Of a stretch of DNA of 64,000 nucleotides, positions 312 through 44,248 are shown in pieces. Below the pieces are notes generated by a model that worked only from the letters and a program-made list of their open reading frames with translations, did no database searches and had not been told where the DNA came from. The DNA lies in the IMG/VR virus record IMGVR_UViG_3300042398_001452. One strand, 5' to 3'. How positions within the stretch are numbered: position 1 is the first letter of the stretch; each line of letters opens with the position of its first letter. Made by a program: the position numbers and the translations under genes. The stretch is from a virus (lineage: Duplodnaviria > Heunggongvirae > Uroviricota > Caudoviricetes).

Positions 312-1058
312 ATGATTCTAAAGTTAAAAGATTTTATTATAGAGCAGGAAACAACGGGAGGAGAAGCCTCTTTATCTGCTCCTTCTACAAGTTCTAAAAA
401 GAACTTAACTATAAATTGGTTAAAGCCAGATCTAGGTGAGGAGATATCACATTATGATGATAAGGCCAAATTAGAATTTTATCAACATAATATAACAATA
501 GGGAATAAAGACATAGGTAGAACCGCTCCAAGAGCAACTAAATTCTATAAATACATTTCTGAACCTTTTAAAAAAGGTCACTTTGAAAATGTTCCTATAG
601 TATCTGAAGGAAGTTTTGATGTTAACAGTATACAAAACTTTATGGTTTATGAATTTGATAATATAGTTAACGGAGCTTATGGAAGAGCTTATGGAGATGT
701 ACTTATCAAAACAACAGAGGAACTAAAAAAGAGAGGAAAACTTGATTTGCCCGCTCCAGTAATAATAAAATTTATAAATTTCGGAGAAACTAGAACATCA
801 GAAGAAGCTAGTTATTATTTATTCTCTGGAAATAGAATTGCAAATTTAGCACTTCAATATAATATACCTATAAAAGCTTGGGTTGTCGATTTAATACCTT
901 CAAGAAGAGATGTTAGACAATTTGCTGAACAATCTGGCTTAACATCAGATCCTAATAAATTCAAAAAACTTCTAAGAAGAGAAACAGGTAAAGAAAGCAT
1001 TGACGATCTAAATGCTAGAGAAAGATTTAAAATCATCCAGTCTCTTAAGAATTTTTAA
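312..1058 (+). CDS. Hypothetical protein with capsid-targeting-like N-terminus; weak ParB/Srx-like C-terminal region
   Basis: N-term MILKLKDFIIEQE; PVII...YYLFSGNR...IPIKAWVV loosely resembles the ParB-N GxxR box. Confidence 0.5.
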   Translation: MILKLKDFIIEQETTGGEASLSAPSTSSKKNLTINWLKPDLGEEISHYDDKAKLEFYQHNITIGNKDIGRTAPRATKFYKYISEPFKKGHFENVPIVSEGSFDVNSIQNFMVYEFDNIVNGAYGRAYGDVLIKTTEELKKRGKLDLPAPVIIKFINFGETRTSEEASYYLFSGNRIANLALQYNIPIKAWVVDLIPSRRDVRQFAEQSGLTSDPNKFKKLLRRETGKESIDDLNARERFKIIQSLKNF

Positions 1059-1072
1059 TCTACCTTTATGGT

Positions 1073-1990
1073 ATGAAATACAATACTAGAATGGGATATT
1101 GTTGTCTTTGTCTTTCCCTCGAGAAAGAAAAGGTAACAACAAATAGAGGAATGATTAAAAAAACATTCTTAGAGAAGGGAATAGAATACGTCTCTGAATT
1201 ATGTGTTAAAAACACGGAGGATCTAATAAGGATCATAAAATTTAACGGAGAGAAAGGAATAAGAATGTATCGGATGAGTTCAGATATGTTTCCTTGGATG
1301 TCAGAATATGAAATATCAGATCTTCCAGACTTCGAAAAAATAAAAAGTAATCTCAAAAAAGCTGGTGATCTTTCTAAAGAGTTAGACCAGAGATTAAGTT
1401 TTCACCCCTCACCATATTGTGTTATTGCTTCAGAGAATCCTTTAGTTGTACAAAAATCTATAAAAGAACTTATACAACATGCAGAAATAATGGATATAAT
1501 GGAATTAGATAGAAGCTATAAATATCCCATTAATATACATATAAACACTACTAAGCCAACTAAGGAGGAAGCAGCTTTTAGATTTATTAGATCATATAAT
1601 GATCTTCCCGATGGCGTTAAAAAAAGACTAGTAGTTGAAAATGATGATAAAAAAAGCCAATTTACTCCTTCAGATTTATATAATATGATATATAAGAAGG
1701 CTGGAATACCTATAACTTATGACTTTTTACATCATAAGTGTAATCCAGACGACTTATCTGAAGTAGAAGCTTTAGATCTTTGTATTTCCACATGGCCTAG
1801 TAATACAACAGCTCTAACTCACTTTTCAGATTCAAGAAAGCTCTTTGAAGATTCTACTGCTAAAGAAGTAGCACACTCCGATTGGATTTGGAGTAAAATA
1901 GAAACTTATGATAGAGTTTTCGATATAGAATTAGAGGTGAAGATGAAAGATCTAGCCTTGTTGAAATACTTAGATGAATGGAAGAAATAG
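1073..1990 (+). CDS. uvsE: UV DNA damage endonuclease
   Basis: MYRMSSDMFP, RLSFHP, RLVVENDD, IPITYDFLHH, HSD and ELEVKMKD match UVDE conserved motifs. Confidence 0.9.
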   Translation: MKYNTRMGYCCLCLSLEKEKVTTNRGMIKKTFLEKGIEYVSELCVKNTEDLIRIIKFNGEKGIRMYRMSSDMFPWMSEYEISDLPDFEKIKSNLKKAGDLSKELDQRLSFHPSPYCVIASENPLVVQKSIKELIQHAEIMDIMELDRSYKYPINIHINTTKPTKEEAAFRFIRSYNDLPDGVKKRLVVENDDKKSQFTPSDLYNMIYKKAGIPITYDFLHHKCNPDDLSEVEALDLCISTWPSNTTALTHFSDSRKLFEDSTAKEVAHSDWIWSKIETYDRVFDIELEVKMKDLALLKYLDEWKK

Positions 1991-2184
1991 ATTTAACTAA
2001 TTCCAGATGGAGTCCAGAAGATGAAATATACCTTCTGAGTGTGGTTGAGGGTATAAGAGATAATTATCCTGAAGCAGATTTAGAAGAAGAACTAAAAAAT
2101 TCGGGGTATTTGCTAGAGGATCTCAAGGATCCAAATAAGATTGTTTTATTTATGAAGATCCTGAATGAAAAATATCCGGATTGA
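1978..2184 (+). CDS. Small acidic hypothetical protein
   Basis: 68-aa ORF overlapping the uvsE stop, same strand. Confidence 0.55.
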   Translation: MEEIDLTNSRWSPEDEIYLLSVVEGIRDNYPEADLEEELKNSGYLLEDLKDPNKIVLFMKILNEKYPD

Positions 2185-2316
2185 TGAAAATATTAAAAAA
2201 CGCAATCTTTTTCCCCTTATATCTATTATTTGGGTTTTTTATCTATGCCCTTCTATTTTTCTATGAATTTCCTCTTATAATTTTTAATATTTTTTCAACA
2301 ACTAAAAAGGATAAGA

Positions 2317-3387
2317 TTGGTTAACTACTATGAAATTCTAGGCGTACAAGATAATGCCGACCAGGAAACTATAAAGAAAGCTTATAGGATAATGGCTAAA
2401 AAATATCATCCAGATAAAAATAATGATCCTAATGCTGAAGAGCACTTTAAAAAAATAACGGAAGCTTACGAAAACATAGGAGATCCAGATAAAAGAAAGG
2501 ATTACGACAGGAAGAGGAGTTTTAAAAACCATTTTTTTGACGGGTTTAGTAATTTCGGATGGAATGATACTGGAGGATTTGATAATTTTGGCAATAGATC
2601 ACATAAAGATCCTTTCTCTAATCACTATAATCCAGATTTTAATCAAGATCCTAAAGGAAGTCACTTGAATATAACACTTAAGGTTACATTCGAGGATGTT
2701 ATGAATGGTGTTATTAAAAAAATAAAGCTGAAGAGGGACAAAAAATGTGGTCCTTGTAAAGCAACAGGATCTGAGGGAGGTTCTTCGTTCCAAACGTGCG
2801 GAACATGTAATGGATCTGGGTATGTTTCAGTAAATAGAATAAATGGATTTGTTCAAGTAAATAGTGTTGCTTCATGTAATATTTGTTGGGGTACAGGAAA
2901 ATTAGTATTAGAAGCTTGTTTATATTGTCTAGGAAATGGATTATTAAACGATGATGATATTATAGAAATAAATATTCCGGCTGGTTCTTCTGATGGTATG
3001 CAATTTGTTGTTGCAAATAAAGGAAATGATGGCAAGGGTAACGGACTTCCTGGAGATTTATATGTCAAAATAAAAGAAATTCCTAGCGATAGATTTATTA
3101 GAAAAGGAACGGATCTTGTCGAAGCTAGAGAGATATCTTTTATAGATGCAGTACTAGGGAAAAATATAGATGTGCAAATGCCAGACGGCGAAAAACTAAA
3201 AGCCGTTATATCTCCAGGAACAATACCAGGAACAATACTTAAATTCTCTCAGAGGGGTATACCTAATTTAGGATATGGAGGGAGAGGTGATTTCCTTATA
3301 GAGATAAACATAAGAATACCTTCATATCTTTCTGAAGACGAGAAGAGATTTATGGAAGAATTAAGAGAATACGACATTTTTAAATAA
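2317..3387 (+). CDS. dnaJ: Full-length class A DnaJ chaperone
   Basis: J domain with HPD, G/F-rich linker, four CxxCxGxG repeats, C-terminal GDL..GDF domains; TTG start. Confidence 0.93.
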
Positions 3388-3394
3388 AATAAAT

Positions 3395-42983: not shown

Positions 42984-43001
42984 ACAATTTAAATTAAATA
43001 T

Positions 43002-43682
43002 ATGGGAAAGAAGATTCCAAAAAATGTAAAGGCTGCTTCCATGAGAGCATATGTAGCCGATGGTAAGACCTTAAGAGAGGTTGCTGTAGAGTTCGGTATT
43101 AACGCTGAGAGTTTAAGAAGATGGTTAGGTAACAAGGTTCGTCCTAGAGGTCGTCATCTTGTTGGTAAGATCAGTAACAATCCCTCAATGAGAAAGACGG
43201 AGGTTGTTGAGATGATTCAGGAAACGAGAAAGCCTAGAGTATCTAAGTTTTCGCCTACTCACAACAGAGCTAATTACCGATGGACAGATACAGAGAATGA
43301 AATCCTTCGTGATGCAGTCCTTAGTAAAATGACTATCACAGAGACCGTTGAATTGCTGGGACGTACCCGAGCAGCTATCATGTGTCAGAAGAGTAAGTTG
43401 ATAGAGGATGGATTTATCTCGGAGAATGAAAGATTCATTCCACCTACAGGCATCAAGAGAGTTCGTAAACCTATGGTGACTGTGATGAGTACACCTGAGG
43501 TAGTTGCGGAAGCACCTCAGCCTGTTGTAGTAGAGAAGCTGATTGAAGTTAAAGTTGCTGAGCCGGTTAAGCCTACATCTAATATTGATCTTGCGGATTT
43601 AGCTAAGCTGGTTAAAGAATTTGGTGTTAATGTCACACTGAACGTTACTGCTGAAGGCATGGAAGTTAAAATGACAAACTAA
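43002..43682 (+). CDS. Two-HTH DNA-binding protein
   Basis: KTLREVAVEFGINAESLRRWL and RWTDTENEILR..ETVELLGRTRAAI. Confidence 0.65.
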   Translation: MGKKIPKNVKAASMRAYVADGKTLREVAVEFGINAESLRRWLGNKVRPRGRHLVGKISNNPSMRKTEVVEMIQETRKPRVSKFSPTHNRANYRWTDTENEILRDAVLSKMTITETVELLGRTRAAIMCQKSKLIEDGFISENERFIPPTGIKRVRKPMVTVMSTPEVVAEAPQPVVVEKLIEVKVAEPVKPTSNIDLADLAKLVKEFGVNVTLNVTAEGMEVKMTN

Positions 43683-43709
43683 TCTCAAACCCCTCGAGAT
43701 TAAAAAAAG

Positions 43710-43738
43710 AAAGACCAGTCTTTTAGGCTGGTCTTTTT
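43710..43738. terminator. Intrinsic terminator
   Basis: AAAGACCAG-loop-CTGGTCTTTTT. Confidence 0.8.
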
Positions 43739-43795
43739 AGTGGGGGGTGGCATCCGGGACCCCTTGCGGGTATGCGTGTGCGTATGTGGATTTTT

Positions 43796-44248
43796 CTAAT
43801 ATTCTTGTTCTTTTCCTAGATGTAGGGTAACGTTCCAGAGTTTTGTATCTTCGGTTTGGTTCATGTGTAGTTCGATTGATGTGAGTGCTAAAGGAAATCC
43901 GTGTACTTCTGTGGTGAATTTGTCGTGATTGAAATCCGATTCCGTTAGTTCGATAGTGTCTTGTTCAGGCTCTCCAGTGTGAGGATCGTCCATCTCGATA
44001 GTCATGGTGAGAGATTTTAGTCTTACTCCTAAGGATCCTAGGTCGATTCCCCAGCTTCTGTAGGACAGGTCAATCGTCCATTCTGCACTGCCGTCTACGA
44101 CTCTTGCCATGTAGATAGATTTTGGTTCGTCATAGAAGTCTATGGATGTTGGAGCGCCACTGCTAGAATATGTGGCTATCTTGGTGGTGTATACCTGGGT
44201 GTCCGAAGCGGATTCCGAGATATGTCCGAATTGTTTAATGCGTCTCAT
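43796..44248 (-). CDS. Hypothetical protein with capsid-targeting-like N-terminus (start re-assigned to 44248)
   Basis: MRRIKQFGHISES; GATAAATA just upstream on the minus strand; the only credible minus-strand gene in the right arm. Confidence 0.55.
   Translation of the reverse strand: MRRIKQFGHISESASDTQVYTTKIATYSSSGAPTSIDFYDEPKSIYMARVVDGSAEWTIDLSYRSWGIDLGSLGVRLKSLTMTIEMDDPHTGEPEQDTIELTESDFNHDKFTTEVHGFPLALTSIELHMNQTEDTKLWNVTLHLGKEQEY

Follow-up and report, generated by a model that had tools for sequence, protein, structure and literature searches.

A 64,000-nucleotide stretch of viral DNA (IMG/VR record IMGVR_UViG_3300042398_001452, hereafter the window) encodes 15 credible proteins, belonging to 13 unrelated families, that begin with the same kind of short peptide: two aromatic residues three positions apart, preceded by a hydrophobic residue and followed by a hydrophobic-x-Glu motif. 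Judged from its sequence features, this tag system is a greatly expanded variant of the capsid-targeting system of bacteriophage T4, and the tag probably marks a large protein cargo. We consider it rather likely that the peptide acts as a T4-type capsid-targeting propeptide used at large scale, that is, that it targets proteins to the phage head and is cleaved off there. Because of its T4-type genes, its syntenic relatives and the capsid identities of the group, the window is classified here as a piece of an uncultured giant Bacteroidota phage that is distantly related to T4. The syntenic relatives, all from IMG/VR, are G001 (a 206 kb fragment with about 75% nucleotide identity to the window), G002 (248 kb, with a DNA polymerase 91% identical to that of the window) and G004-G006 (complete genomes of 270-319 kb, with polymerases about 59% identical). 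The capsid protein of the group shares 39-43% identity with that of the Lak megaphages and about 30% with those of Flavobacterium phage MaF61, Chryseobacterium phages MA9V-1/2 and Tenacibaculum phage pT24. No DNA relative of the window, near or distant, and no protein relative of its largest tagged protein (717 aa, encoded at 16694) exists in a set of 50,697 phage records. Genes are referred to below by the coordinate of their start codon (Table 1).

A simple mechanical gene call from the first ATG gave 98 genes in the window, 60 of them in its left arm. The motif [ILV]xx[FYW]xx[FYW] begins within residues 2-10 in 14 of the 98 genes, and 13 of these are among the 60 of the left arm; the sole match in the right arm, 58442, is a membrane helix. 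Given how often the motif recurs internally in these proteins, 1.5 occurrences would be expected for the left arm, so that the excess is about ninefold. Addition of two variant tags (312 and 44248) brings the credible tagged proteins to 15. All 16 N-termini listed in a preliminary description of this DNA read as they were written there, but its count of at least 15 unrelated proteins stands for the proteins and not for their independence. Body-to-body BLAST finds two paralog pairs (16694/18881 and 21078/23196) and no other related pair, which leaves 13 unrelated families. The sixteenth N-terminus, that of 25769, is doubtful as a tagged gene, because the open reading frame (ORF) has no homolog in the relatives (G001, G002) and overlaps by 33 nt the 3' end of the convergent gene 25898-26905(-). 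The two variants are off-pattern, each at one of the aromatic positions, but both keep the hydrophobic-x-Glu motif and have tagged orthologs; the internal start that had been proposed for 44248 is borne out by its G001 ortholog.

Aligned on the first aromatic residue, 103 tags from the window, G001 and G002 have Ile (61), Leu (27) or Val (13) at position -3, Phe (76) or Tyr (26) at position 0 and Phe (88) or Tyr (14) at position +3, with Ile, Leu or Val most frequent at +4 and Glu most frequent at +6. Phe or Tyr occupies both aromatic positions in 13 of the 15 window tags. The hydrophobic-x-Glu site ends at residue 11-17 in 15 of the 16 listed N-termini, and it has exactly the T4 spacing in six window tags and lies 1-7 residues further along in nine more. 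Six window genes, versus 0.7 expected, carry the full T4-type core, [FYW]xx[FYW]-hydrophobic-x-E, at the N-terminus. Cut-type sites fall within residues 5-26 in 68-74% of tagged proteins of the window, G001 and G002 and in 46% of those of G006, versus 11-16% of untagged proteins. The preliminary description had likened the tag to the internal proteins of T4, and in the T4 record ipII and ipIII do begin with MKTYQEFIAE; ipI begins with MKTFKEF, with a cut-type I-T-E-A further on. The match is closer than had been claimed. Mutagenesis of T4 IPIII assigned targeting mainly to residues 4 and 7 and processing to residues 8 and 10 (review, PMC9026906), and the four conserved positions of the tag are these four mapped positions, with an extra hydrophobic residue where T4 has Met1.

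The tag is always at the extreme N-terminus. It does not resemble a Sec, Tat or lipoprotein signal peptide, as charged and polar residues alternate with single hydrophobic ones and there is no hydrophobic core of at least seven residues after a basic N-region; examples of true signal peptides in the window are those of 22653-23081(-) and 24730-25182(-). Codons at the conserved tag positions are used as in the genome background, so that selection acts on the peptide and not on the DNA. In three AT-rich cultured relatives the exact tag motif was observed 11, 1 and 5 times, versus 7.0, 4.3 and 6.3 expected, and since these relatives have no excess of the motif, base composition is not the cause of the tag.

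The tag behaves as a module that is separable from the protein behind it. Orthologs in G001 and G002 retain it even where their bodies are 26-35% identical, and it is still N-terminal in a homolog with a 60-residue insertion. For the phosphodiesterase encoded at 39740 there are no homologs in G001 or G002 and many in metagenomes. Twenty of the latter carry its own tag, with I, L, F, F and E invariant and with insertions or deletions immediately past the Glu-Ser; two carry another tag flavour (MKHIKLFEDY), and more distant ones have a membrane anchor in place of the tag. In the AF2 model of this protein, residues 1-18, which include a short helix (8-15), have a predicted confidence (pLDDT) below 50 and lie outside the folded domains, the enzyme domain being above 90. 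Models of the 717-aa and 505-aa cargo proteins in the ESM Atlas scored below 0.8 and were not usable. The tag appears to be older than its cargo, since most window cargo lacks homologs in G006, pT24 and MaF61, yet both families that are shared with G006 are tagged there as well.

Most tagged genes had been described as lying behind a common upstream box, 10053 excepted, and this holds: in the 60 nt before the gene, GATATATA is found for 10 of 14 tagged and for 3 of 84 other window genes (Fisher p 2e-8), 10053 being without it. The association recurs in G001 and G002 (p 2e-8 to 3e-12). All 16 GATATATA boxes of the window are in its first 41.6 kb (from position 1), and there are none in the right arm. 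GATATATA is probably a late promoter, because in G002 it stands before the head protease gene, before neighbours of that gene in the head module and before the tail-fibre genes. The tag is absent from the T4-type replication and repair genes of the left arm, which encode a topoisomerase II medium subunit, a fragment of a family-B DNA polymerase, an exonuclease, a T4-type RNA ligase, UvdE and a full DnaJ, and it is absent from the small genes that make up the right arm (44-64 kb, + strand). Both points agree with the preliminary description.

A gp21-like protease, whose search had been proposed earlier, was found in close relatives together with a gp23-type capsid protein; the window itself holds no head gene. 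In each of the five related genomes searched, Pfam Peptidase_S77 and Gp23 score above their cut-offs, in neighbouring genes. T4 head proteins and PF03420 had no match in G001, which is a fragment without the head module. The G002 protease belongs to the PHROG family “head maturation protease” (phrog_207, E-value 2e-37) and aligns to T4 gp21 through the GELDHP and SSR motifs, which we take to hold the catalytic His and Ser. A phmmer search of the protease domain against PDB sequences gave no match, and its family membership is based on Pfam, PHROG and the T4 gp21 alignment. In G002 (18267-20300, with the protease domain at 18267-18800) and in G006 (46011-47960), the protease forms a fusion protein with a scaffold-like tail, in which a 14-residue unit (consensus NISYSEYLAENLDK) is repeated 13-14 times in tandem. 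Each repeat has a T4-type cut motif and contains Y-x-x-Y-L-x-E-N, whose core (YxxYLAE) is shared with the F-x-x-F-I-x-E-S of the tag. The phage group is abundant, given that homologs of this protease-scaffold fall into 2,331 clusters in public metagenomes.

The N-terminal domain of the capsid protein has a hydrophobic-x-Glu-Ser site that is conserved across the clade, as S-L-N-E-S in G002 and G004-G006 and as I-Y-E-S, I-L-E-S or L-N-E-S in cultured phages. This site, about 30 residues past a tag-like start, is probably the maturation cut. The scaffolds of pT24 and MA9V-2 are rich in x-N-E-S sites. Because the same motif is conserved in the capsid protein and abundant in the scaffolds, the tag most likely ends in the protease site of the clade. 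In G002 and G006, tagged genes follow the capsid gene immediately, within the cluster of head genes. A complex prediction for a tag (the 41 N-terminal residues of the GDPD protein) with the G002 protease domain scored 0.02, which speaks neither for nor against binding. As separate observations, the N-terminal domain of the capsid protein begins with a tag-like W-S-P-I-I-E-S in G002, W-S-E-F-I-N-E-A in MA9V-2 and W-K-P-L-L-E-G in T4, and the T4 scaffold gp22 starts with MLKEQLIAEA, which resembles the T4 tag MKTYQEFIAEA, so that the T4 tag likewise looks like part of the scaffold.

The loose tag motif occurs in 47 of 318 genes of G001, 42 of 324 of G002 and 37 of 352 of G006 (8 expected in G006), a few of these being membrane helices. 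Tagged genes number about 30-45 per relative genome, or about 14% of genes, which agrees with the earlier description of the tag as genome-wide. In the cultured phages, about nine proteins of MA9V-2 (OR513085.1) start with MK(N/T)FFxF(I/V)NE(S/A), and one of these, reading MKTFTYFINEA, is encoded just upstream of the protease gene; about 12 proteins of pT24 (LC168164.1) start with x-x-E-Y-(L/I)-x-E-(S/A). Local motif counts over the whole genome of MaF61 gave no such leader versions. A minimal, lineage-independent motif, aromatic-hydrophobic-x-E-[SAGQ] within residues 3-18, is enriched 4- to 13-fold in all genomes compared, except MaF61. A 13-residue profile of the tag matched nothing in the cultured relatives, but T4, the positive control, escaped it as well, so that the search is uninformative. 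Few known domains came out of a Pfam census of 91 tagged proteins: MoxR-type AAA (3), OmpA (3), putative metallopeptidase (2), GDPD, CHAP and Tad3. The Tad3 domain (type I Thoeris inhibitor, E-value 2e-22) is in a tagged 256-aa protein of G002 (151584-152354). This homolog is a candidate injected anti-defence protein, in parallel to T4 IPI, which is an injected anti-restriction protein (PMC3012670). Literature searches found no published description of expanded tags of the capsid-targeting type in Bacteroidota or giant phages.

Under the reading that we favour, tagged genes would be transcribed late, from the same GATATATA promoters as the head genes. The two aromatic residues of the flexible N-terminal peptide would dock the cargo onto the scaffolding core during prohead assembly, the scaffold being the predicted protease-scaffold fusion, whose repeats carry the Y-x-x-Y-L-x-E core that is also that of the tag. 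After closure of the shell, the S77 (gp21-type) prohead protease would cut past the Glu of hydrophobic-x-Glu, mostly before Ser, and capsid protein and scaffold are probably further substrates of the same protease, with sites of like form. The freed cargo would remain in the head and most likely exit with the DNA at the next infection; it would consist of cell-wall-binding or cell-wall-degrading proteins, a phosphodiesterase and many unknowns.

Several points weigh against this reading. Docking, packaging, cleavage and ejection or delivery are steps that we infer. The window is without head genes, and the protease is known from relatives with polymerases 91% and about 59% identical to that of the window. 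The hydrophobic-x-Glu motif is missing from its expected place in about a quarter of tags, and the MKHIKLFExF flavour would need cutting inside the tag. Cut-type sites show no depletion in the bodies of tagged proteins (observed/expected 1.2, equal to the value for untagged proteins), although a loss of such sites could be anticipated in cargo that meets the protease; accessibility could explain this. Orthologs share 62% identity in the tag, slightly above the 59% of the body. Finally, a head with 40 or more cargo species would greatly exceed that of T4, an objection of scale that is tempered by giant phage SPN3US, for which the account in PMC7411985 gives about 50 head proteins.

Other functions of the tag were weighed against the same evidence. 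It could dock proteins to another hub, such as the baseplate or tail, a membrane assembly site or a chaperone, for example the phage DnaJ, in which case the likeness to T4 would be convergence on an amphipathic N-terminal helix. Several bodies would suit a tail or envelope location, being lysozyme-like, OmpA-like or built of collagen-like/tail-fibre-like repeats, and the window does encode a full DnaJ. We nevertheless hold this to be unlikely, as the four conserved positions are the four mapped in T4, the tag ends in a motif conserved in the capsid protein and scaffold, and the head clusters of G002 and G006 contain tagged genes immediately behind the capsid gene. Slightly less likely again is that the tagged proteins are accessories of the prohead core or scaffold, targeted and cleaved but then degraded or retained and not delivered. 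The sharing of the tag core with the scaffold repeat, the lack of depletion of internal cut-type sites and the presence of second sites at residues 20-27 in some tagged proteins would all suit such a role. It fits poorly with the many bodies that are folded enzymes or binding domains with host targets (GDPD, OmpA-like, lysozyme-like, CHAP, metallopeptidase and Tad3).

That the peptide serves expression or turnover, as a late-gene translation or stability signal or as a degron recognised by a phage protease, and spreads as a recombination module of promoter plus leader, would account for the co-travelling of box and tag and for the high variability of the cargo among relatives. We find it improbable: synonymous codon use at the tag is unbiased, and there is therefore no constraint at the RNA level; about half of the tagged genes of the relatives have no box; and a degron would not require the targeting aromatics of T4. 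There remains chance, with a genome of about 31% G+C and motif residues (K, I, F, N, E, Y) whose AT-rich codons could make such N-termini common. To this we give next to no credence, as it is refuted by the controls, namely the ninefold excess over the internal rate, the lack of excess in AT-rich relatives, the restriction to the N-terminus and the link with the box.

The propeptide reading finds its closest parallel in T4 itself. The capsid targeting sequence of IPII, IPIII and IPI is removed by the prohead protease gp21, as summarised in PMC9026906 and PMC9958956 (after Mullaney and Black 1996). As in the tags described here, that sequence comprises the N-terminal 10-15 or so residues, with aromatics three apart and a hydrophobic-x-Glu motif, in front of unrelated, fast-changing bodies; predicted late expression, a gp21-family protease and a gp23-family capsid protein in the lineage are further points in common. 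The differences are mainly of scale and detail. There are three or four such proteins in T4, versus 15 tagged genes in the window and about 30-45 per related genome; the host is of the Bacteroidota; there are several tag flavours; a hydrophobic residue stands three before the first aromatic, where T4 has Met1; the residue after the putative cut is mostly Ser, and Ala in T4; and the bodies include large enzymes and reach 717 aa, whereas those of T4 are small and basic. The variable internal-protein loci of T-even phages, as PMC9026906 relates them (after Repoila et al. 1994), also combine a conserved leader with diverse, rapidly exchanged bodies and are read as arms-race cargo. Those are confined to close T4 relatives, with a few genes at a single locus, whereas the tagged genes here are scattered over the whole late region.

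In the giant heads of phiKZ, 201phi2-1 and SPN3US there are about 50 protein species, many of them packaged, trimmed after Glu by a T4-like prohead protease and ejected, according to PMC5694885, PMC7411985 and PMC10052503. The propeptides of phiKZ-type phages are long, whereas the tag is short. At P3, ahead of x-Glu, their reported cut motif carries a small residue (S/A/G). In the tag site P3 is I, L, V or M, hydrophobic as in T4, so that the tag does not fall under the definition of a phiKZ-type head propeptide. To our knowledge no short shared address tag exists in phiKZ-type giant phages. The cargo-loading peptides of encapsulins are likewise short and transferable and bring unrelated enzymes into a shell of the HK97 fold. 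They are usually C-terminal, bind the shell directly and are uncleaved, and their cargo is never ejected.

If the tag works as in T4, the proteins that an uncultured giant phage carries into its host could be listed from the genome alone, and this list would span anti-defence factors, tools that act on the cell wall and many functionally uncharacterised proteins. Capsid targeting, so far known at a scale of three or four proteins, would extend to dozens, a tag that mimics the scaffold repeat would provide a mechanism for how the T4 tag finds the core, and a portable loading tag for Bacteroidota phages would be at hand. The idea is directly testable, because related tags are present in the cultured phages MA9V-1/2 and pT24; for MA9V-1/2 the published protein analysis extends to SDS-PAGE. 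A more specific proposal, which is possible but which we put forward tentatively, is that of a cargo code shared by a clade of T4-related giant Bacteroidota phages. The tag would mimic one unit of the 14-residue repeat of the scaffold (and the start of the capsid N-terminal domain) and co-assemble dozens of enzymes, anti-defence proteins such as the Tad3 homolog included, into the prohead core; the head protease would free them for injection, and lineage-specific versions of the tag would co-evolve with the scaffold. Were this so, the injected proteome of uncultured giant phages would be readable from sequence alone.

Table 1. Genes of the window with the N-terminal tag; an empty cell means that there is no entry or that the point is given in the text
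Coordinates	Strand	Length (aa)	Tag	GATATATA box at	Body	Homologs
312..1058	+	248	variant MILKLKDFIIEQE, Leu for first aromatic, I-I-E-Q site	299	low-complexity linker next to tag; no Pfam or PHROG family	tag kept by G001 and G002 orthologs
3741..5258	+	505	ILSFNQFMNEQ	3728	collagen-like/tail-fibre-like repeats, phrog_3000 domain	orthologs tagged
8690..9547	+	285	IKDFNSFVNES	8663		G001 homolog, body 33% identical, tag near-identical
10053..11057	+	334	ILKFNEFINES	none		G001 homolog tagged, 35% identical
14808..15344	-	178	IQQFESF then M-N-E-G	15370		orthologs tagged
15395..16105	-	236	IKGYNDF then V-L-E-S	16125	lysozyme-like (phrog_181 endolysin, E-value 6e-12; Pfam Phage_lysozyme2 below cut-off)	tagged and untagged homologs in relatives
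16348..16674	+	108	IKRYEQYIAE, nearest to T4 TYQEFIAE			homologs in G001, G002 and G006 tagged despite differing body length
16694..18847	+	717	YISLFDNF then V-D-E-S, L-F-E-S		no family found	paralog of 18881
18881..21028	+	715	YLSLFDDF then I-D-E-S	18850		36% identical to paralog 16694
21078..22604	+	508	VLSFNEFINES	21045	OmpA-like peptidoglycan-binding domain	exact match in three JGI metagenome samples
23196..24668	+	490	VLSFTEFVNES	23161	Pfam OmpA, E-value 2.5e-7, above cut-off	paralog of 21078
25769..25930	+	53	IKTFKNW	25754	doubtful ORF	
28258..28899	+	213	LKNYKDF then I-Q-E-V	28231		orthologs tagged
33704..34129	-	141	MRYIKLFEEF (“MKHIKLFE” flavour)	34152		orthologs tagged
39740..40822	+	360	ILNFKDFIILES	39727	small beta domain, disordered linker, glycerophosphodiester phosphodiesterase (Pfam GDPD, E-value 2e-17)	
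43796..44248	-	150 (from internal start)	variant IKQFGHISES, no second aromatic, hydrophobic-x-Glu kept			G001 ortholog begins at same Met; G002 homolog with canonical tag LRLFENF

A 51-aa ORF at 16191-16346 (starting MKFKNSWKS) lies behind a double GATATATA box (at 16167) and is kept in G001 and G002; it probably heads an operon with the tagged genes 16348 and 16694. The two arms of the window differ in base composition, with about 31% G+C in the left and 35-43% in the right. At their junction (41590-42620), about 1 kb is devoid of convincing genes, and G+C rises there from about 0.32 to 0.43; this stretch contains no tRNA and no Rfam family, and no tRNA, tmRNA or Rfam family was found in the window as a whole. 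Between 44300 and 64000, about 20 right-arm genes each have a near-identical upstream promoter box of the TTTTCTACATTAGCTATGTAACCAAT type, containing TAnnTTTG, an element that we take to be the Bacteroidota housekeeping promoter. These are probably early genes, read by the host polymerase.

The family-B DNA polymerase is apparently split into two genes (window 7485-8654; G001 28919-30325), which are about 16 kb apart in G001. A tandem family of paralogs of about 130-170 aa that start with MTREEFIE has 2-3 copies in the window, at 37871-38314(-) and 40815-41587(-), and nine consecutive copies in G001 (77253-81444). In the early arm, 50815-55668 encodes a MoxR-type AAA ATPase followed by two paralogs of about 513 aa, which have Gly/Trp-rich N-termini and weak VWA/CobT-like matches.

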